The notes under the pieces are model-generated. The model made no database searches and was not told the origin of the DNA. It saw only the letters and a list, made by a program, of their open reading frames with translations. A program made the translations under genes and the position numbers. DNA of 64,000 nucleotides from Candidatus Levyibacteriota bacterium (lineage in GTDB: Bacteria > Patescibacteriota > Microgenomatia > Levybacterales > UBA12049): assembly GCA_016432345.1 (NCBI GenBank), contig CP066685.1, positions 48,236-112,235 of the forward strand, in the 5' to 3' direction. Positions 1-49,832 of the stretch are shown piece by piece (position 1 is the first letter of the stretch; the number at the start of each line of letters is the position of its first letter).

Positions 1-666
1 ATAGCCACCTTCCAAGAAGAAATTACCCAAATGATGCAAAATACTATTTGTTTGAGAAAAATTGTCATCTATAATACTTTGTACAGTATTTTCTCCCCGA
101 ACCTCTATATTTTTTACTTGAAGGTATTCGTAAAAATTAAAAGGGTAAATATCAAATTGCACATTCCTGCCTGTTAATACTGTTGCTGTCTCGGAATCTA
201 TTAAAGATCTTCTTGATCCGGAAATAATAAACTTGACGTTTTTATTAAATTCATAATGGGTATGCAGCCAATGATTAAATTCCCTTATTCCTTGTAGTTC
301 ATCAAGAAAAATATATACCTTTCCCTGGGGATTATGTTTCTCAAGGTAAAAAGTGTAAAATTGTTCCAAAATCTTGGCTCCTGATGATAAATATGGTTGT
401 ACTAACAAATCTTCAAAATATAAATACAAGACATTTTTTGGGTTTGTACCTGTTTCTATCAACTTGCCCATTAGTTGGCGCATCAGAGTGGACTTGCCAG
501 ATCTTCTAACACCAGTGAGTATGAGAATATGGCGTATATCCATGGCTTTCCATAATCGTTTAAGGTATTTCTCTCGTGGGACAGTTCCAACCCATTCTCC
601 TTTTTCAGGATTCTCAAAATGTGGATTCCATTTTTTTAACAATAATTCTATTTCTGTAAGGTTCAT
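1..666 (-). CDS. AAA+ ATPase, DUF4143/COG1373-like (C-terminal part cut by window edge)
   Basis: Absent from the ORF track because it runs off the window. My minus-strand translation from ATG at 666 gives MNLTEIELLLKKWNPHFENPEKGEW...ILILTGVRRSGKSTLMRQL (Walker A) and IFLDELQ (Walker B-like). The frame stays open to position 1. Confidence 0.7.
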   Translation of the reverse strand, partial: MNLTEIELLLKKWNPHFENPEKGEWVGTVPREKYLKRLWKAMDIRHILILTGVRRSGKSTLMRQLMGKLIETGTNPKNVLYLYFEDLLVQPYLSSGAKILEQFYTFYLEKHNPQGKVYIFLDELQGIREFNHWLHTHYEFNKNVKFIISGSRRSLIDSETATVLTGRNVQFDIYPFNFYEYLQVKNIEVRGENTVQSIIDDNFSQTNSILHHLGNFFLEGGY

Positions 667-734
667 ATATAATATATTTTACAATAAATGGTCATTCTTG
701 TCAAGTATATTTGACGTATTAACTAACGAAATGG

Positions 735-780
735 TTTTTTCTCCCTTCCATCGTAGAGCAAGGGGGAGGGGTTTTGCAAG
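735..780 (+). repeat. 46-bp direct repeat, copy 1 of 3 (TTTTTTC.C..TTCCATCGTAGAGCA..G.GGG..TTTGCAAG)
   Basis: Aligned by eye with 1429-1474 and 2360-2405 in the same orientation. Lies between the AAA ATPase start and the brnA stop. Confidence 0.7.
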
Positions 781-806
781 TATGTGAAGATACAAGATTA
801 CCCGAG

Positions 807-1076
807 TTATGCTCCTTTTGCCAATTGCTGCTTCATTAAACTTTGGTACGGAACATCAATTTTTGATGCTTTTTGCTTATAACTTCTAACAATATCTGTG
901 GGAATACGTATAGTTATTCTGGTTATTTTTGGCTCAGCGTGCTTTTTAAGAAATTCTGTTACATCAAAATGTTTAAAATCTTTTGCTTCGTAATACTTTG
1001 AAAGATCAATCTTTTCCCAAAAATCATGCTCCTCATCTTCATTTTTAAACTTAGGCAGTACTAATTTTTTCTTCAT
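807..1076 (-). CDS. brnA: BrnA-like antitoxin (RHH/CopG-type)
   Basis: 89 aa. Overlaps the upstream BrnT-like gene by 26 nt. C-terminal ITIRIPTDIVRSYKQKASKIDVPYQSLMKQ is typical of BrnA. Confidence 0.7.
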   Translation of the reverse strand: MKKKLVLPKFKNEDEEHDFWEKIDLSKYYEAKDFKHFDVTEFLKKHAEPKITRITIRIPTDIVRSYKQKASKIDVPYQSLMKQQLAKGA

Positions 1077-1350
1077 AAAGTTTTACCTCCTTCCTTTTTG
1101 CATCTCGCGCGTGAAGGACACGGATGTGGTTATTTCTTACAGTAAATGCCAAAAAGAGTGTTCTTCCTTTTCGAGTTTTGCCAATGATTGCAAAGCGTAT
1201 TTCGTTTTGAGAGTGAAGTTCATCTGTTCCTCCTATTGCATGAGGATCTTTTATAGCCTCTTCTGCCTCGAATGGTCGTACTTGATGCCTTTCCCATAGA
1301 TGAGTTGTATTTCCAAAGTCCCACTCAAAACGCCTCTTAATTTTTGGCAT
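1051..1350 (-). CDS. brnT: BrnT toxin (DUF497 ribonuclease family)
   Basis: 99 aa. FEWDFGNTTHLWERHQVRPFEAEEA matches the DUF497 N-terminal pattern. Paired with the brnA-like gene. Confidence 0.8.
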   Translation of the reverse strand: MPKIKRRFEWDFGNTTHLWERHQVRPFEAEEAIKDPHAIGGTDELHSQNEIRFAIIGKTRKGRTLFLAFTVRNNHIRVLHARDAKRKEVKLYEEKISTA

Positions 1351-1428
1351 ATCTAATACATCTTTAGTATGTACACATTTTAAGGGATATATTTAATCTT
1401 GTCAAGAAGCACCGCCGCTAAAAAAGAA

Positions 1429-1474
1429 TTTTTTTCACTCTTCCATCGTAGAACAGCTGCAGGGTTTTTGCAAG
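1429..1474 (+). repeat. 46-bp direct repeat, copy 2 of 3
   Basis: TTTTTTCACTCTTCCATCGTAGAACAGCTGCAGGGTTTTTGCAAG, lying between the divergent brnT and mnt genes. Its TTGCAA plus 17 nt plus TATTAT could double as the mnt promoter. Confidence 0.7.
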
Positions 1475-1502
1475 AGCGTAGAGTGTATGGTATTATGGTG
1501 AT

Positions 1503-1928
1503 ATGAAAAAGAAGATACAATTTGATAAAGAAAAAATGGCAGCAATTGCCAAAAAGCATGGTCTTGTATTTGTGGTGCTTTTTGGATCAAAAGCCCGGGG
1601 AGAAAAACCAAATGCCGAGAGCGATTTGGATATTGCCGTGCTGGCAAAAAAGGATTTATCGTATAAGCAATACATGAATGTGCATAGCATGATTGCCGAT
1701 CTTTTTTCGGGGCAAAACGCAGACGTGCGGTTGCTTAATGATACTGATTTATTATTTCAACATAATGTAGTGCGTGATGGCATTTTGCTTTTTGGGAATC
1801 ATGAGGAATATAAGACATATAAGCGTTTAATAGTTCGGCGTTACGTTGATGATGGAGAAATATATTTCCCTATGCTTGATAGACTTGTTTTTAAGCAGCA
1901 GGAAGAACTGGAAAGAAAAATACTATGA
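1503..1928 (+). CDS. MNT-type nucleotidyltransferase antitoxin
   Basis: LFGSKARGE...SDLDIAV is the minimal nucleotidyltransferase GS..D.D motif. Overlaps the downstream HEPN gene by 4 nt. Confidence 0.8.
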   Translation: MKKKIQFDKEKMAAIAKKHGLVFVVLFGSKARGEKPNAESDLDIAVLAKKDLSYKQYMNVHSMIADLFSGQNADVRLLNDTDLLFQHNVVRDGILLFGNHEEYKTYKRLIVRRYVDDGEIYFPMLDRLVFKQQEELERKIL

Positions 1929-2356
1929 TTGATGAAAAAATGGTCGTTGAAAAAATTAGAAGAATTCAGATAGAGTTGCTTAATCTTGAAAGATTTGAAG
2001 TATTTACGTTTGACGAGGTGGCAAAAAATTATGATACGCATACAATTGTGGAACGGATTATCGAACGCATTGTTGGTTTTGCAATAGATATTAATCAGCA
2101 TATTCTTGTTGAAGGCGGAAAAGGTGATTTGCCATTTGATTTTAAGAAGAGTTTTCTTTTTCTTGTAGATTTGGATGTTTATCCAAAAGAATTTGCGGAA
2201 CAAATTTGTGAATCGGCAGGATTGCGTAATATTTTAGTGCATGATTATGTGAAGCTTGACGAAAATAAGTTTTATAATTCAATCAGAGATTGTAATCACG
2301 ATTACACCAAGTATTGTCGTTATATCCTTGATTTTCTTAAGAAGAAATCTTCATAA
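1925..2356 (+). CDS. hepT: HepT/DUF86 HEPN toxin
   Basis: RNILVHDY matches the HEPN Rx4HxY motif. Paired with the MNT gene. Confidence 0.8.
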   Translation: MIDEKMVVEKIRRIQIELLNLERFEVFTFDEVAKNYDTHTIVERIIERIVGFAIDINQHILVEGGKGDLPFDFKKSFLFLVDLDVYPKEFAEQICESAGLRNILVHDYVKLDENKFYNSIRDCNHDYTKYCRYILDFLKKKSS

Positions 2357-2359
2357 AAC

Positions 2360-2405
2360 TTTTTTCACATTTACATCGTAGAGCAAAAGAGGGAGGAAAT
2401 GCAAG
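2360..2405 (+). repeat. 46-bp direct repeat, copy 3 of 3
   Basis: TTTTTTCACATTTACATCGTAGAGCAAAAGAGGGAGGAAATGCAAG. Ends 1 nt before the 3' end of tRNA-Ser(GGA). Confidence 0.7.
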
Positions 2406-2492
2406 CGGAGAGGGAGGGATTTGAACCCTCGATATCCTTGCGGATATACAGCTTTTCCAAAGCTGCGCACTAGGCCACTATGCGACCTCTCC
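2406..2492 (-). tRNA. tRNA-Ser(GGA)
   Basis: Hand-folded cloverleaf: acceptor GGAGAGG/CCTCTCC, anticodon arm CAGCT-TTGGAAA-AGCTG, long variable arm, T arm GAGGG-TTCAAAT-CCCTC. CCA is not encoded. Confidence 0.9.
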
Positions 2493-2498
2493 AAAATT

Positions 2499-2564
2499 CA
2501 GCGTTTAGCGTCTAGATATTAGCGTTCAGTTAATCTTAAACTAGACGCTATTAACTATACGCTG
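2499..2564. repeat. Palindromic heptad-repeat element, copy A
   Basis: Sequence CAGCGTT TAGCGTC TAGATAT TAGCGTT CAG ... CTAGACG CTATTAA CTATACG CTG. The arms are mutually complementary. Overlaps the last codons of the Nudix gene. Confidence 0.75.
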
Positions 2565-2969
2565 CTTAGCCTCTTTCCAAACTTGCTTGTCTGATGGATA
2601 TGTTAATCTTTTTTCGACTTTATCAATTAGTAACCATTCTACGTTTTCCATTTCCCAGTCGTGATCTTTTATATCGCCAGATATATACTCCATTAAAAAA
2701 TAATATACTGTTTTTTTAATTTTTTGTCCTTCAAAAACATACCAGTAGGTAATTGGCGTTAAAGGTTGTAAAATTTTCCCCAATACTCCTGTTTCTTCTT
2801 TAACTTCCCGAATGGCAGTTTCTTTTTTGGTTTCGTTTTCTTTGTAATCACCAATCAATCCTTTTGGAAACACCCAACCATGATGTTGAGAGTGTTGTGC
2901 AACTAAAATCTCAAGACCCTTTCCCGTTTTTTTATAAACTATTCCTCCAGCCGAAAACTCAAACTTCAT
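2541..2969 (-). CDS. Nudix hydrolase
   Basis: Nudix box GLIGDYKENETKKETAIREVKEETGV, matching Gx5Ex7REUxEExGU. Confidence 0.85.
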   Translation of the reverse strand: MKFEFSAGGIVYKKTGKGLEILVAQHSQHHGWVFPKGLIGDYKENETKKETAIREVKEETGVLGKILQPLTPITYWYVFEGQKIKKTVYYFLMEYISGDIKDHDWEMENVEWLLIDKVEKRLTYPSDKQVWKEAKQRIVNSV

Positions 2970-3010
2970 AAATTATTGACACTTGTTATCTTTTGTGTAA
3001 CGATTATAGC

Positions 3011-3346
3011 ATGGATATTAGTCAGGAAGTAAATCTTATAGAGAAAGAATTATTAGAACTTATTCTTCAACATTTGGAAAATAACAAAATTGACGCGGAT
3101 AAAGCCCAAAGTTTGGCAAAAGATTTTTTGGCAATTCTTCCTGTGGCAGACCAAAAAGATTTACTCCAAAAGTTACAGAATTTAAGCAACATTTACGAAG
3201 AGGCAAAAGAATTGTATGTTGATGAACTTACAAAAGTCAGCAACGAGCAGCGAGATTTAACATTAACTCAAATGCGGGATGCGATTCAAAAAGGAAATAT
3301 CGAACATGCAATAACTGCGGCAAAATCGCTGCAGCAAAATAACTAA
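3011..3346 (+). CDS. Hypothetical helical protein
   Basis: ORF 2993-3346. The ATG at 3011 (MDISQEV...) is preferred over the upstream TTG. No recognisable motifs. Confidence 0.4.
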   Translation: MDISQEVNLIEKELLELILQHLENNKIDADKAQSLAKDFLAILPVADQKDLLQKLQNLSNIYEEAKELYVDELTKVSNEQRDLTLTQMRDAIQKGNIEHAITAAKSLQQNN

Positions 3347-3589: not shown

Positions 3590-3669
3590 CAGTGTTTAGT
3601 TAATCAGCGTCTAGCGTATAGTTATCCATTTTTCAACTAAACGCTAATAAACTCGCCGCTAAACGCTTG
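3590..3669. repeat. Palindromic heptad-repeat element, copy B (more degenerate)
   Basis: CAGTGTT TAGTTAA TCAGCGT CTAGCGT ATAG ... AACTAAACGCTAATAAACTCGCCGCTAAACGCTTG. Lies between the tRNA-Arg 5' end and the helicase start. Confidence 0.65.
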
Positions 3670-6095: not shown

Positions 6096-6101
6096 AAAAC
6101 T

Positions 6102-6168
6102 CAGCGTATAGCGTATAGAAATTAGGGTATAGTTTTAACTAAACGCTAGACGCTATTCACTAGACGTT
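6102..6168. repeat. Palindromic heptad-repeat element, copy C
   Basis: CAGCGTA TAGCGTA TAGAAAT TAGGGTA TAG ... AACTAAACG CTAGACG CTATTCA CTAGACG. Fills the gap between two tRNA genes. Confidence 0.75.
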
Positions 6169-12719: not shown

Positions 12720-13574
12720 GTGGCTTCGCAAAAGTGTTATGATAAATATGTGGAGTATCAGGAAATTGATAATTGGGAAAAAGTATCAGAACTTAAAAAA
12801 CTTTTAGATTTATCAACAAAGCCAAAACATCTCTATTACATAGGCAACCTCGATCCTCAAATTTTTAAGCATTGTGCGGCAATTGTGGGGTCGAGAAAAA
12901 TGACTTCTTATGGACAAACAGTTGTTGAGAAAATGGCACCTCGGCTTATTTCCCAAAATATCACCATAGTTTCTGGGTTTATGTATGGGGTAGATCAATA
13001 TGCTCACAGAGTTTGCGTTGAGAGCGGGGGTAAAACAATTGCAGTTTTTGGTTGGGGAATAAACACTAAATTAACAGGTAATGATTTGAAACTGGCCAAA
13101 GATATTATCGCAAGCGGAGGATTATTACTGTCTGAATGGGAAGAACAAAAAGCATCTCATTGGACATTTCCTGTTAGAAACAGAATTGTAGCCGCTTTAT
13201 CTGATGCTGTGTATGTGGTGGAAGCAGCGTTGCACAGTGGTTCTTTAATTACTGCAAGACTGGCTCTAAAACTTAAAAAAGAGCTCTTCGCAGTTCCCGG
13301 ACCAATTACTTCTCGCACCTCTTTTGGCACCAATAAATTAATAGCGGATGGAAAAGCCAAAGTGTGGTTGGGGCAGGATGCAATAAACATTTTGCAGTCT
13401 GTCATTGATGATCCAATGCTGCAAATTTTAGATAACGAAGCATTAAGCGCTGATGAGTTGGCTTTGAAACTGAATGTTCCAATTTCTAAAATTGGAGCTA
13501 AACTTTCCATGTTTTTGTTGTCTGGTCAACTTAATGAAAAAGGAGGAAAATATTACATAAACTATGTTAGTTAA
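12720..13574 (+). CDS. dprA: DNA processing protein DprA (Smf)
   Basis: AIVGSRKMTSYG, IVSGFMYGVDQYAHR, GGKTIAVFGWGI and SGSLITARLALKLKKELFAVPG are typical DprA Rossmann-fold motifs. GTG start. Confidence 0.85.
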   Translation: MASQKCYDKYVEYQEIDNWEKVSELKKLLDLSTKPKHLYYIGNLDPQIFKHCAAIVGSRKMTSYGQTVVEKMAPRLISQNITIVSGFMYGVDQYAHRVCVESGGKTIAVFGWGINTKLTGNDLKLAKDIIASGGLLLSEWEEQKASHWTFPVRNRIVAALSDAVYVVEAALHSGSLITARLALKLKKELFAVPGPITSRTSFGTNKLIADGKAKVWLGQDAINILQSVIDDPMLQILDNEALSADELALKLNVPISKIGAKLSMFLLSGQLNEKGGKYYINYVS

Positions 13575-15111: not shown

Positions 15112-15464
15112 AAGCGCATAACAGACAAACAGGAATTTTGGCAGAAAATTTAGCTGCAGAGGAGCTGGCTAAAAAAGGCTACTCTATTTTAGAGCGAAAC
15201 TTTAGCAATCGCTATGGTGAAATAGATATTATTGCCAAAGATAAAGAAATGTTAATTTTTGTGGAGGTAAAAGCAAAGAGGGGAATAGAATTTGGCACAC
15301 CCGAAGAAATGATAACTGCTTATAAATTAAAACGAGTCCAAAATATGGCCACCATCTACATGAAAGGTAAAAATTTGCCTTGCAGAATTGATGTGGTAGC
15401 AATCGTTTTTTCTCCAGATAACAAGATACTGTCTTTAACTCATTACAAAAATGTTTACTTCTAA
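15108..15464 (+). CDS. YraN family endonuclease (UPF0102)
   Basis: YGEIDIIAKD...LIFVEVKAKR motif. ATGA overlap with comM. Confidence 0.8.
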   Translation: MKAHNRQTGILAENLAAEELAKKGYSILERNFSNRYGEIDIIAKDKEMLIFVEVKAKRGIEFGTPEEMITAYKLKRVQNMATIYMKGKNLPCRIDVVAIVFSPDNKILSLTHYKNVYF

Positions 15465-16095
15465 TTTTGTGGGTATACTTGATTTTTTGTTTCCCAAATA
15501 CTGCGTTAATTGTAAAAAGCTGGGATCGTATCTTTGCTCCGATTGCTTTTCTTACATTTCATTCAGCGAACAAAATACTAATAGTAGATATTTTTCTGCT
15601 ATTGCTTACAAAGGTGTGGTTAGGAAACTTATTTTCCAGTTTAAGTATAAACCATACTTGTCGGATCTTCGCAGTGTGTTGTCAGACCTTTTTTATGAAA
15701 GTTTAATTCAGCAAGAGAAATTTATGCAGATTTTAGAGACAAATCCTATTTTAGTTTCTATTCCGCTTCATAAATCAAGATTACAAAAGAGAGGATATAA
15801 TCATGCTCAAATTTTGGCAGAAGACCTAGCGAAGAGATTTGGTTTGTCTTACGTTGATTTACTCAAGCGGGTAAAGAAAACATTGTCGCAGTATGGTCTT
15901 AAAAAAGATGAGCGCAGAAAAAACGTTGCTGGCGCTTTTGTTTTTATAAATGATAAGCAACAAGTAATAAGAGATAGGTATGTTTTTTTAGTTGACGATA
16001 TTTTAACTACCGGCGCAACTATAAACGAAGCTACGCTGGTTCTCCAAAAAGCTGGGGCCAAAAACGTGTGGGGACTCGCCCTTGCGAGAGATTAG
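15451..16095 (+). CDS. comFC: ComF family phosphoribosyltransferase (ComFC)
   Basis: N-terminal CxxC...CxxC and the PRTase motif FLVDDILTTGATINE. Confidence 0.85.
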   Translation: MFTSNFVGILDFLFPKYCVNCKKLGSYLCSDCFSYISFSEQNTNSRYFSAIAYKGVVRKLIFQFKYKPYLSDLRSVLSDLFYESLIQQEKFMQILETNPILVSIPLHKSRLQKRGYNHAQILAEDLAKRFGLSYVDLLKRVKKTLSQYGLKKDERRKNVAGAFVFINDKQQVIRDRYVFLVDDILTTGATINEATLVLQKAGAKNVWGLALARD

Positions 16096-16097
16096 TG

Positions 16098-16505
16098 TGG
16101 AGATGTCCGAGAGTGACTCGGAGTCCAAGAGCGACAATAAAAAACATCTACAAGCATAGTTGATTTTTAAGAGTCATTTTATTCTTTGTCAATCAACAAA
16201 CATGAATAAAATCAAGGTTTAATAAATAAAATAAGGACAAAAACCAATCTTCCTTACCATTTCTCAACTGTGTTTCTGCCTATACCGTCCCATTGAGAAA
16301 GATGATATAAACAAACCTTAAGCTCTCGCTAACGCGAGTTCTCTTTGGTTAAGCATTCCAAGCTCGGACATAATTGCGTATGCCTCTGCAAAGAGTGCTC
16401 GTCTGCTGGTTTTAATAGCAGTTATTATTTGATCTTTTTTACGACTGTTATCAAAGTCGGCTTGCAGTTTTTTAACGTACATTCTTGTCGATGCAATGCA
16501 TCCCC
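16098..16505 (-). ncRNA. ssrA: tmRNA (ssrA)
   Basis: 5' GGGGATGCATTGCATCGACAAG pairs with 3' CATCTCC-A to give a 7-bp acceptor stem containing G3:U70. A tRNA-like 3' arm reads GGACTCCGAGTCACTCTCGGA. An internal frame ends ...NQRELALARA-TAA at 16318-16320. Starts 37 nt downstream of smpB on the same strand. Confidence 0.8.
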
Positions 16506-39219: not shown

Positions 39220-39727
39220 AGGGGAGACATCGCTATATGGCGGAAAAAGAGTATCAAAAGCAGATCTAAGAGTTGAAGCCTATGGGACAGTGGATGAACT
39301 CAACAGCGCAATAGGTATTACGATTGCGCAATTTTCAAATAAATCTCAAATAATAAATCTCAAAAAAGAACTTACACAAATTCAAAATGATTTGTTTGAA
39401 ATTGGCTCAATCTTAGCGAGTCCATCAACTATACGCTATACGCTAGACGCTAGACGCTTGGAGAAGATGATTGATGAGATGACAAAAGAACTTCCAGAGC
39501 TTCGAAACTTTATTTTGCCAGGAGGAGGTATTGTAGGTTCGTATTTGCATCTTACTCGTTCGATTGCAAGGCGGGCAGAACGAAGAATTGTTGTATTGTC
39601 TCAAAAAGAGCAGGTTGACAAAAGTATTTTAATGTATTTTAATCGTCTTTCTGATTTGCTGTTTACCATGGCTAGGTTTGTAAATTATAAAGAAAATAAA
39701 AAAGAAGTTATTTGGACAAATAAATAG
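39188..39727 (+). CDS. pduO: PduO-type ATP:cob(I)alamin adenosyltransferase
   Basis: KIYTKTGDKGETSLYGGKRVSK, DELNSAIG, NFILPGG and ARRAERR. Confidence 0.9.
   Translation: MVKIYTKTGDKGETSLYGGKRVSKADLRVEAYGTVDELNSAIGITIAQFSNKSQIINLKKELTQIQNDLFEIGSILASPSTIRYTLDARRLEKMIDEMTKELPELRNFILPGGGIVGSYLHLTRSIARRAERRIVVLSQKEQVDKSILMYFNRLSDLLFTMARFVNYKENKKEVIWTNK
39429..39458 (+). repeat. Heptad array (CTATACG CTATACG CTAGACG CTAGACG) in frame inside pduO
   Basis: This is the right-arm type of the palindromic family. 22 nt (39424-39445) are identical to 52944-52965. Encodes STIRYTLDARR. Confidence 0.9.
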
Positions 39728-39818
39728 ACGGGTGAAACCTTGTGAAATTCAAGGGTAGTGCCGCTACTGTGACAACCAGAGCCCCGATATGAGTCTTCCG
39801 AGCAGAAGCGTTTTTTTT
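39728..39818 (+). ncRNA. Candidate cobalamin riboswitch (short variant)
   Basis: GGUGAAACCUUGUGAAAUUCAAGGGUAGUGCCGCUACUGUGA aligns without gaps to the core consensus AGGGAAnnnnGGUGnAAnUCCnnnnCnGnnCCCGCnACUGUnA. The CCUUG-UGAAAUU-CAAGG hairpin resembles P4/L4, and CGGG...CCCG forms a closing helix. A U8 run precedes the ATG at 39819. Confidence 0.45.
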
Positions 39819-40916
39819 ATGGAAAGAGAAGTAAGATTAGGCTCGCAAGCTTTTGATGTTGAAAAAGAAAGAGTATACGGAAATAAACAAATTCGTGATG
39901 ATTTAGTGTCGTATTTAGACGAATATCGTTTGCAAGTATCAAAACATGGTTTTGAATTTCAATATTCTGGTTATAAGGTTAAGGATATATATAGTGGCGA
40001 GCCAATGAGCGTTAAGACAAAACGAACTTTAGCAGAGCGACGAGCAAAAGGATTGCCAATACACAGAGAATTAGCAGAAGATGCAGGTATTGAAAGTCTT
40101 GATGAGCAGTTGGCATATGCCAAAGAAGGAGACCGTATTTTTTGGATGAGCCCGCCAGGACCAAAAGAAGATGGATATGGTAATTATGGCTTTGTTTTTG
40201 AAGGTAGAGTTGTGGGTGAGCGTCTTTTTATGACTGCAAATCGAATAGAAAAACCAACTATTGCCCAGTGCAACAAAGCATTTTTTGAATTAACAAGAGA
40301 TAATGTTGGCTATATAAATCCAGAGGGATTTTTAGCCAACCCCAGAGTTGTTAGAAATAGTATGGTTGATGCAGATTTTATCTTGCAAAGAAATTTTTCG
40401 TTTGCAGTAGATCAGAAAGAAGCATTAATAAATAAACAAGTTATTGCAGAAATGGATTCGATGATTGATGAATTTGTTGGGGTAGTAAAAACAGGCACGC
40501 GAGAAGAAAAGATTACTGCTTTTCATGCGCTGGAAAATTACGCGCTCGAACTCAAAAAACGTCTTATGCATAAGGCCGAAGCAAGGGAAAACGATAACAT
40601 TATTTTTATGAGCGAATATCGTGATCATAGATATTTAGCAGATATACTGAATGTCTATGGATATATGCCCCCCATTGTTGCGGGAAGCTGTGGACCAACC
40701 GGAGAGGAAACAAAAAGTAACGATCTGTTTGCCGATAATTTTAAAGATTTAATGAAGGCAATTTTTGGAGACTTGAAGGAGATGTTTGGTATTGATGAAG
40801 AATCTTATTCTTTTGATAAGAGCGGTACGTGTGTGCGGTGCAAAAACGAAGGCATGCTTGGTCCGTGTAATTTGTGTCAAGGGTGTGATAGCTACTTACG
40901 ATTGCAAGCCGCGTAA
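39819..40916 (+). CDS. Hypothetical protein with C-terminal Cys cluster
   Basis: 366 aa from the ATG at 39819 (the track start 39789 lies inside the leader structure). Ends CVRCKNEGMLGPCNLCQGCDSYL. No family recognised. Confidence 0.5.
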   Translation: MEREVRLGSQAFDVEKERVYGNKQIRDDLVSYLDEYRLQVSKHGFEFQYSGYKVKDIYSGEPMSVKTKRTLAERRAKGLPIHRELAEDAGIESLDEQLAYAKEGDRIFWMSPPGPKEDGYGNYGFVFEGRVVGERLFMTANRIEKPTIAQCNKAFFELTRDNVGYINPEGFLANPRVVRNSMVDADFILQRNFSFAVDQKEALINKQVIAEMDSMIDEFVGVVKTGTREEKITAFHALENYALELKKRLMHKAEARENDNIIFMSEYRDHRYLADILNVYGYMPPIVAGSCGPTGEETKSNDLFADNFKDLMKAIFGDLKEMFGIDEESYSFDKSGTCVRCKNEGMLGPCNLCQGCDSYLRLQAA

Positions 40917-46337: not shown

Positions 46338-47204
46338 TTACAGCTCGATTAGCTGAGTGTTTTCTTTGCCTTTGTCTTTGACAAATTCTAAGTATCTTTC
46401 AGTTGTTGAGATGCGTTTGTGGCCGAGGATTTTGGAAAGCATCACCAAAGACACACCGTGTTTGATGTGGTGGGCAACAAAGGTATGGCGAAGGTCATTG
46501 ACCTTGGCATTTTTAATCTCTGCCAATCTAAAGTAGCGCTCGATAGCAGTTCTAATATTACGAATTAAGAAAGGTTTTCCAGATTTGGTCACAAAGATAC
46601 GTTCCTCTTTGGTTTGGGGTCTGATAGTTAGATATCGCTTTAATGCTTCTTTAGCTGGCCGATTAAGCGGTACCAGGCGTTCTTCGTGTTTTTCGTACGG
46701 GCGGATTTTAAGGGTGTCGTTTTGAATATCTTCGAGTCTAAGATTGGCAAGTTCGCCGATACGAATTCCTGTTTGGAGAAGGATTTCAATAACAGCAAAC
46801 ATACGTGCATCATCTCGCGCGGCATCCCTAAGAGCTCGATACTCCATGGGTGTTAGAATTCGGGGTGGCGCAAGCTCGTAGCGGGGATGAGAGACTAAAA
46901 GAGATGGGTCATCTGTTATGTATTCGTTTACTTTAAGAAAGCGGTAGAATGTTCGAGTAGAGTTGAGTTTTCGGGAAATAGTTTTTGGCGTATAGCCAGT
47001 GCCGGTAAGTTTTGCCAAGAATGCTTCAAGATCGTTTTTGGTTACCTCGTGAACGTGATTTTTTTTCATTTCCTCCAAAAAAGAGATCAGCTGATCAATA
47101 TCTTTTCCGTATGCTACAATGGTAGCATTGGAGTGTTTTTTACCTTTGAGGAAATTAGTAAATTCCTGGTGGGCATCTCGTAATTTAACTTGCTTGCTGT
47201 TCAT
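46338..47204 (-). CDS. Tyrosine recombinase XerC/XerD-like
   Basis: N-terminal SAM-like domain. Catalytic region GIRIGELANL, LRHTFVAHHI and GHKRISTTERYLE. Confidence 0.85.
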   Translation of the reverse strand: MNSKQVKLRDAHQEFTNFLKGKKHSNATIVAYGKDIDQLISFLEEMKKNHVHEVTKNDLEAFLAKLTGTGYTPKTISRKLNSTRTFYRFLKVNEYITDDPSLLVSHPRYELAPPRILTPMEYRALRDAARDDARMFAVIEILLQTGIRIGELANLRLEDIQNDTLKIRPYEKHEERLVPLNRPAKEALKRYLTIRPQTKEERIFVTKSGKPFLIRNIRTAIERYFRLAEIKNAKVNDLRHTFVAHHIKHGVSLVMLSKILGHKRISTTERYLEFVKDKGKENTQLIEL

Positions 47205-49514: not shown

Positions 49515-49520
49515 GTAAAT

Positions 49521-49800
49521 TACGCGCGGGGTAGTGTAGAGTGCACGTGAGGCTCAAAATGGGCCCTTTTATTAGTAATAATGAGAGAGAACTTAGCTAT
49601 ATCGGTAAAATCCCCCTTCGCATAAAGTTTTGGAGGGACAATACCGAGGGAATCCGCAAACTGGCGGAACACCGTAGAGACTACACGCTAAGCTCCCGAT
49701 ACTATCGGGATGATGATATAGTCCGACACTCCAAGCAATTGGAGAAACAGATCGCATAATCTCACAGGCTGGGCGCAACTCCCAGCCCCGCAACACATTT
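49521..49800 (+). ncRNA. Unclassified structured RNA (stand-alone sRNA or long 5' leader of the MFS gene)
   Basis: Hairpins: CGGTA...TACCG (49603-49646) enclosing TCCCCC/GGAGGGA; TCCGC-AAACTG-GCGGA (49653-49668); CCCGAT-ACT-ATCGGG (49695-49709); CTCCAA-GCAA-TTGGAG with a GNRA loop (49729-49744); GGCTGGG-CGCAACT-CCCAGCC (49767-49787) followed by a T5 run. A possible closing helix is GCGGGG/CCCCGC. The ORFs on both strands look like noise. Confidence 0.4.
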
Positions 49801-49832
49801 TTCTTCCAGACCCCTTTTGCTATACTAGCAGA

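Follow-up and report, generated by a model that had tools for sequence, protein, structure and literature searches.

Copies of the predicted promoter and start codon of a pilin-like gene bracket toxin–antitoxin and ATPase cassettes in a Levybacteria genome

We analyzed a 64,000-nucleotide (nt) stretch of the genome of a Candidatus Levyibacteriota bacterium (contig CP066685.1, positions 48,236 to 112,235; hereafter the window), at the beginning of which three short direct repeats punctuate a set of accessory genes: an AAA_14/DUF4143 ATPase, the toxin–antitoxin (TA) pairs brnT–brnA and mnt–hepT, and, at the far border, a tRNA-Ser(GGA) gene. To judge from their sequence, these repeats are truncated copies of the predicted promoter and translation start of a type IV secretion system (T4SS)-pilin-like gene, the first of a four-gene cluster lying beyond the window. 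We favor, with a probability of roughly 0.7, an origin of this array by serial recombination-driven insertion of cassettes, with the pilin-like gene's promoter and 5' end as the anchor. The repeated unit, henceforth the module, has a common anatomy and an orthologous position in related genomes, and the cassettes inserted beside it are polymorphic between those genomes; from these we infer a recombination mechanism behind the array.

The three copies run in the same orientation along the plus strand at 735–780 (c1), 1429/1430–1474 (c2, with a 1-nt indel) and 2360–2405 (c3), in agreement with a preliminary description of this DNA, and their recurrence is far above chance. A 12-nt core, CATCGTAGARCA, has three matches in the 64 kb with at most one mismatch against an expectation of 0.24, and a 26-nt degenerate pattern likewise has three with at most three mismatches against 0.01 expected. 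That description had also placed the copies at the borders between the ATPase, brnA–brnT, mnt–hepT and the tRNA-Ser, and searches with Pfam confirm these genes: c1 is flanked by the start of the ATPase (666) and the stop of brnA (807), c2 by the starts of brnT (1350) and mnt (1503), and c3 by the stop of hepT (2356) and the tRNA gene. It overlooked a fourth copy outside the window, and the sense of the repeats, which becomes visible only on the minus strand.

Read on that strand, each repeat takes the form CTTGCA(A/T), 17/18 nt of spacer, TACGAT, GGAAGn and GTG AAA AAA, with c1 departing from the consensus by a GAG in place of the GTG start. The stub c3 (2353..2407, minus strand) has its putative -35 element TTGCAT at 2404->2399, its -10 element TACGAT at 2380->2375 and the GTG at 2368->2366, followed by the truncated reading frame MKKVL*; it retains about 14 nt of coding-sequence homology, adjoins the 3' end of the tRNA-Ser and is directed, antisense, into the 3' end of hepT. 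In the stub c2 (1423..1476, minus strand), the corresponding elements are TTGCAA (1473->1468), TACGAT (1450->1445) and GTG (1438->1436), followed by MKKILF*, and its palindromic TTGCAA doubles as the -35 of a divergent mnt promoter (TTGCAA-17-TATTAT, plus strand, 1468–1496). The stub c1 (720..781, minus strand) has TTGCAA at 779->774, TACGAT at 755->750 and the mutated start at 743->741, after which about 24 nt of frameshifted coding-sequence homology can be traced. The minus-strand open reading frames (ORFs) across the repeats are conserved only in MKK and two to four further residues, and a small protein gene was accordingly rejected as an explanation.

An alignment of 13 distinct copies brings out the same architecture: TTGCA and TACGAT are invariant (13/13) and are spaced 17–18 nt apart by a variable spacer, and in every intact copy the start codon follows the -10 box at a distance of 6 nt. 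Within the window, TTGCA-N18/19-TACGAT occurs three times, against 0.05 expected. The coding homology of the stubs to intact genes ends variably, at 14, 17, 24 and 37 nt after the start, with the window stubs retaining 14–24 nt and meeting a stop codon after five to six codons; given these differing end points, the junctions were not formed at one crossover point. We interpret the module as a sigma-70-like promoter with a predicted leaderless start, i.e., with a transcript that would begin at or beside the start codon, since a start codon 6 nt past a -10-like hexamer is the arrangement expected of a leaderless transcript. Leaderless sigma-70 promoters share with it both the hexamers 17–18 nt apart and the start codon 6 nt past the -10; what sets the module apart is a specific variant, a TACGAT -10 with a TTGCA -35, conserved for one gene. 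Several of the cassette genes, too, begin 6–9 nt past their own -10 boxes. By a crude test, Shine–Dalgarno-like motifs precede 5 of 50 long window ORFs against a background of 5.7%, and TAnnnT lies 5–9 nt before the start in 10 of the 50 against a background of 10%, a crude hint that this organism makes little use of Shine–Dalgarno sequences and has short or absent leaders. Further, a dyad (GTTGCA-N7-TGCAAC or CTTGCAA-N4-TTGCAAG) overlies the -35 element in the intact module of this genome (c4, see below) and in those of the related loci L020, L028 and L029, which hints at a regulator site and dedicated regulation.

The fourth copy comes from the Logan contig L001, which is identical to window positions 1–2434 and reaches 8.4 kb beyond position 1. 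Here the ATPase gene is complete (453 amino acids (aa), AAA_14+DUF4143, L001 1769–3130), and the intact module c4 (L001 3158–3210) follows 29 nt past its stop. The GTG of c4 (3195) is the called start of a 344-aa PF18895 pilin-like protein, MKKIPFHIFTFF... (MKKIPFHIF...), so that the contig presents the ATPase, then four PF18895 'T4SS_pilin' genes in succession, and then unannotated genes.

The same association holds in relatives, although homologues of the pilin-like protein are few, with only 24 at E<=1e-5. A profile of the module, run with nhmmer on related Levybacteria loci (about 200 kb of related DNA), finds it once per locus and directly upstream of the pilin-like orthologue in six other loci: L020 (7989–8040), L021 (7963–8015), L025 (7930–7983), L027 (6706–6756), L028 (6586–6637) and L029 (5677–5727). 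In L001, L021 and L028, independent gene callers begin the downstream gene at the GTG of the module, and in L029 the called start is no more than one base away from it. Upstream of the module, L020, L021, L025, L027 and L029 encode a regulator of 410–460 aa combining an AAA-ATPase with a winged-helix Trans_reg_C domain; L028 has a different gene there. In L020, L027 and L029 the site is free of cassettes and the stop codon of the regulator lies 0–4 nt before the module, whereas in L021 and L025 a Phd–PIN TA cassette stands between the regulator stop and the module, with no second module copy at either locus. The Trans_reg_C gene is missing from the source locus and from a further locus, L007, which are the two genomes with the AAA_14 ATPase cassette at this position. 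Possible remnants of the 3' end of Trans_reg_C to the left of c1 and c4 matched by eye at only 6–8 of 14 nt, and were set aside as too weak to use.

These comparisons recast the preliminary description, which had viewed the repeats as insertion scars of cassette-like accretion at a tRNA gene. As an account of the architecture this stands, in that the repeats bracket accessory cassettes and the insertions vary between relatives; the repeat itself is, on our reading, a promoter with a 5' gene stub and not a dedicated recombination site. The proposed tRNA anchor falls away: the 3' flank of tRNA-Ser(GGA) in relatives lacks the motif, which is instead fixed upstream of the pilin-like gene, the very constant placement before a core gene that had been named as counting against this view. 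Relatives that carry a cassette without the repeats, likewise named as adverse to that view, were found in the TA cassettes of L021 and L025.

A second array was recovered by scanning 185,579 species genomes with a strict 24-nt pattern, for which L007 (CAZIZQ010000005.1) is the sole real match; single matches in unrelated taxa (L006, L008 and L009) were dismissed as chance. L007 has two modules around a 409-aa AAA_14/DUF4143 ATPase. Its upstream copy, L007_B, is a stub (MKKVFS*) with 37 nt homologous to the coding sequence of L021, and its downstream copy is an intact module preceding the pilin-like orthologue. On its flanks are a 1305-aa and a 424-aa gene, both orthologous to neighbors in L021, and Trans_reg_C is absent from its usual place. 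This contig was deposited as 'uncultured Gammaproteobacteria' though its genes are of Levybacteria type, and it is probably mis-binned. In the JGI metagenomes, a looser pattern produced one real match, L019, alongside a chance match within a dehydrogenase gene (L018). Among viral contigs, the first pattern had no matches, and the second had only a chance match within a phage primase–helicase gene (L030).

The units between the modules are self-promoted. The mnt–hepT cassette (nucleotidyltransferase/HepT RNase; 1475..2356) is on the plus strand, opposite to the other cassettes, with the Polbeta/MNT gene at 1503–1928 (Pfam Polbeta, 1.8e-17) and HepT at 1925–2356 (HepT-like, 1.9e-17). The brnT–brnA cassette (807..1405, minus strand) comprises BrnT (1051–1350; 1.4e-15) and the CopG/BrnA antitoxin (807–1076; 1.1e-19), and has its own promoter, TTGACA-17-TAAAAT (1405->1377; 11/12 in a promoter scan). 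The ATPase cassette enters the window with its 5' part (1..716, ORF 1–666, minus strand), the gene running past window position 1, and has an identical TTGACA-17-TAAAAT arrangement at 704->676. These strong promoters lie 24–30 nt downstream of c2 and c1, respectively; if active, the two stubs would give brnTA and the ATPase each a second promoter further upstream. On the other side of the array, the tRNA-Ser(GGA) gene (minus strand; 2405–2492 by ARAGORN, 2406–2492 by Rfam) forms its left boundary and lies outside the repeat, whose homology begins after the discriminator base and includes no tRNA sequence. Beyond it lies a NUDIX gene (2541–2969, minus strand). NUDIX and then tRNA-Ser(GGA) is a conserved order in Levybacteria, and the region past the tRNA varies: the module was not found next to the tRNA in the relatives L010 and L012–L017, and where relatives have it, it lies several kb away. 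In L010/L021, about 7 kb between the tRNA-Ser(GGA) and the pilin cluster are occupied by a GH113 gene, a 564-aa gene, a 1202-aa gene and Trans_reg_C, a block without tblastn matches in the window or L001. Within the tRNA-Ser(GGA), at window positions 2432–2434, three independent Logan contigs from this organism come to an end. This is an assembly break, probably due to k-mers that several tRNA-Ser genes have in common or to strain differences at the junction.

The ATPase is also found away from the module. At L031, a copy 83% identical (1598–3147) resides beside rho, and no module was found near it, which rules out the ATPase as a module-specific element. The homology between L031 and the window begins at CGTCAAATATA (716->706 in the window, where it sets the left edge of the cassette), just upstream of the cassette promoter, and ends about 20 nt past the stop; as it starts and stops at the cassette edges, the ATPase cassette is a discrete unit. 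Homologues 75–88% identical occur in many lineages of the candidate phyla radiation (CPR), nearly all on contigs of 1.5–5 kb, and the ATPase is thus more conserved than the core NUDIX gene (70–81%). Together, these comparisons suggest that the AAA_14/DUF4143 ATPase is a mobile, possibly multi-copy gene. The L031 copy is flanked by a 13-nt near-direct repeat, AT(A/T)CTTGTCATTG.

Briefly, we advance the following mechanism for the array. The self-promoted mnt–hepT, brnTA and ATPase cassettes would have entered the pilin-like gene successively, just within its 5' end, with each incoming DNA bringing or regenerating a module beside the gene and displacing the earlier one upstream as a stub. The incoming form would be cassette–module–5' pilin, most likely in DNA taken up from other Levybacteria; L021 and L025, with a cassette directly upstream of a single module, show this donor-type arrangement. 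Homology would anchor the exchange on the module/gene side, the other end would be joined illegitimately just inside the resident gene, and the resident promoter and first codons would remain as an upstream stub after each event. The route would then be homology-facilitated illegitimate recombination, or 'sequential displacement', and c4 would be the intact module that still drives the pilin-like gene. On uptake, the window encodes DprA (12720–13574, plus strand; DNA_processg_A, 4.6e-61) and a ComFC-like protein (15451–16095, plus strand; Pribosyltran and DZR_2), which indicate natural-transformation machinery. The stubs probably still fire, which would give read-through or antisense transcripts over the cassettes; they could be regulated together with the pilin-like gene.

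Several observations weigh against this account. L021 and L025 gained a cassette at the site without a duplication, so that duplication is not obligatory, and the module of L019 stands directly before the ATG of an unrelated 151-aa small membrane protein. Nor does the account say why c3 abuts the tRNA end exactly or how the approximately 7-kb block was lost. In the 72 kb of the 762-kb source genome that the search covered, the copies are confined to this locus, and others may occur elsewhere. In favor of the account, in the matrix of pairwise identities, c4 is nearest to the module of L020 (86%), which has the closest pilin orthologue, and c2 is nearest to c4 (82%), whereas c3 and c1 are 56–58% identical to c4 versus 78–84% to modules of other genomes; the signal of foreign origin in it is weak, however, because the copies are only about 50 nt long. 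As to the promoter, TACGAT matches TATAAT at only 4/6 positions, and both the activity and the leaderless start are predicted from sequence and position. Lastly, the hexamers of the stubs are perfect although their spacers have diverged, which may reflect either continued selection, as active promoters or operator sites, or a recent origin from functional (foreign) modules.

In its outline, the proposed process has precedents. Displacement of Rhs C-termini was reportedly described by Jackson et al. 2009 (as cited in PMC5361080). The array resembles the orphan arrays of Rhs and contact-dependent inhibition (CDI) toxins and of type VI secretion system (T6SS) effector–immunity modules in having an intact gene at one end (here c4, with c1–c3 and L007_B as stubs), a short piece of the anchor before each successive unit, generating same-orientation repeats, and heterogeneous junctions with no dedicated recombinase. 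Sequential displacement by homology-facilitated illegitimate recombination was proposed for such arrays at Rhs, CDI and Vibrio cholerae T6SS loci (PMC5361080). The present case differs in its anchor, a promoter with the first codons rather than a conserved 3' core, such that old copies accumulate upstream; in its cargo, unrelated self-promoted TA and ATPase cassettes rather than alleles of one toxin/immunity function; and in its host, a CPR bacterium. Viewed in this way, it would be a known process, sequential displacement based on an anchor, in a new form.

Among other explanations, the module might be a dedicated recombination site, akin to integron attC or Xer/dif, at which cassettes move as circles under a recombinase acting in trans, its resemblance to a promoter being secondary. 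Direct repeats bracket every cassette in two genomes, the cassettes lack a recombinase of their own, a dyad, GTTGCA-N7-TGCAAC, is present in some modules, and given two modules the excision of a circle with one cassette and one module is formally possible. A Xer-like tyrosine recombinase (288 aa, 46338–47204, minus strand) is encoded in the window, albeit 44 kb off; it is the sole recombinase among the 20 window ORFs scanned with Pfam, and the earlier statement that the window holds no integron-type integrase is upheld among them. Nor is there an integrase within 10 kb on either side: recombinase domains are absent from the 8.4 kb upstream in L001, where the preliminary description had left the question pending, and, over about 10 kb downstream, from the ORFs scanned. 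The window copies have no conserved hairpin and no 11-6-11 dyad (the best 11-nt dyads match at 6–8 of 11 positions, without conservation), the right junctions vary from 14 to 37 nt into the coding sequence, which speaks against integron-like site-specific exchange, and six loci devoid of cassette arrays have the module as a single copy at a fixed position upstream of an orthologous gene. With L021 and L025 holding a cassette without a second site and L031 an ATPase without any module, we consider this explanation unlikely. Integron arrays (attI/attC, IntI) do share with the present one the stacking of accessory cassettes, often TA pairs, by a promoter with repeated elements between them; here, there is neither IntI nor an attC-type imperfect palindrome, the repeat is itself a promoter, the cassettes are self-promoted, one is inverted, and junctions are variable. 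The Xer-dependent pdif modules of Acinetobacter are also similar, being small, often TA-encoding modules between short repeated sites without their own recombinase; however, pdif sites, which are 28-bp XerC-6-XerD dyads, alternate in orientation and lie on plasmids (PMC6449649, PMC6160057), unlike these direct, dyad-less copies of a chromosomal promoter. A Campbell-type integration of circularized 'cassette plus module' units, by homologous or trans-acting site-specific recombination, is a possible variant. A bolder version holds that the pilin-like gene, with its promoter and 5' end, serves in Levybacteria, and perhaps in CPR widely, as a dedicated capture platform, where self-promoted defense or TA cassettes would be stacked and exchanged between genomes via the approximately 50-nt module, with catalysis in trans, for instance by the Xer-like recombinase or the transformation machinery, and stub promoters would place the cassettes under the pilus regulator; we count this as distinctly unlikely.

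The stubs could instead be remnants of tandem pilin-like paralogues with their own promoters, whose bodies were later deleted or overwritten by cassettes. Four PF18895 genes do stand in a row in the cluster and the stubs keep genuine coding-sequence homology; however, in the six related loci the module stands before the first cluster gene alone and tandem module-bearing genes are lacking, three to four independent near-complete gene deletions would be needed, all sparing the promoter, and L007 is not accounted for, which makes this origin quite improbable. We rate as very improbable that the module is a small mobile promoter element inserting before genes: several copies within one locus and the L019 module before its unrelated membrane protein gene are what such an element would leave, but it lacks both terminal inverted repeats and target duplications, the 72 kb of the source genome and the related DNA have copies at this locus only, the strict scan returned only L007 and chance matches, and its position relative to the orthologous gene is conserved. 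Given that c3 adjoins a tRNA 3' end and that relatives differ in what lies downstream of this tRNA, the repeats might be attL/attR duplications from islands integrating at the 3' end of tRNA-Ser(GGA), with direct repeats at the borders as in tRNA-linked islands at large. With no tRNA sequence in the repeats, no integrase, motif-free tRNA flanks in relatives and an orthologous home at the pilin-like gene, there is next to nothing to recommend this view. We find equally scant room for terminators, insulators or a structured regulatory RNA common to the cassettes, despite two copies lying downstream of the minus-strand brnA and tRNA genes: on both strands, the folds of all copies are no better than those of shuffles (z -0.6 to +0.6), none is overlapped by a terminator prediction in the window, and Rfam has no match to them at the gathering threshold or at E<=1, in keeping with the earlier view that they are not terminators. 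Moreover, read on the minus strand, the element ends in an A-run rather than a U-run, and the variable part sits exactly where a stem would be required.

Some further features of the window deserve mention. A tmRNA (16095–16505, minus strand; Rfam, 89 bits), unreported by ARAGORN, adjoins the ComFC-like gene. Common repeats, TCAGCGTnTAGCGTnTAG and CTAGACGCTA, at 2498–2561, 3604–3646 and 6101–6166, lie just 5' of the minus-strand tRNA genes Ser-GGA, Arg-CCG and Ser-CGA, and probably represent a promoter or leader element that these tRNA genes share. Within 49520–49805 (plus strand), a group I intron (RF00028, 66.5 bits, 49545–49745) has flanks resembling tRNA halves, with GCGGGGTAGTGTAGAG... 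upstream and a T-arm and acceptor, ...CTGGGCGCAACTCCCAGCCCCGCA, downstream; ARAGORN called no tRNA at 49520–49805. An AdoCbl-II riboswitch match (39716–39792, plus strand; 39.8 bits, just over the gathering threshold) is directly upstream of a 375-aa ORF (39789–40916) without a Pfam match.

On our favored reading of serial insertion anchored on the pilin-like gene, the extra copies of promoter and start codon preserve the sequence in which the cassettes were inserted. Were the stub promoters active, TA expression would be coupled to the regulation of the pilin-like gene, including by an antisense transcript from c3 over hepT–mnt; and were the capture platform to prove true, it would constitute a recombinase-less, promoter-based analogue of the integron. 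To our knowledge, no promoters have been mapped in Levybacteria, and the module offers a candidate promoter and leaderless-start consensus for the group. More generally, the locus marks a hotspot, situated before a gene cluster for a surface appendage, where an uncultivated lineage with reduced genomes has gained TA and ATPase cassettes, and suggests that the accessory gene content at this hotspot is shaped by recombination of taken-up DNA rather than by integrases.

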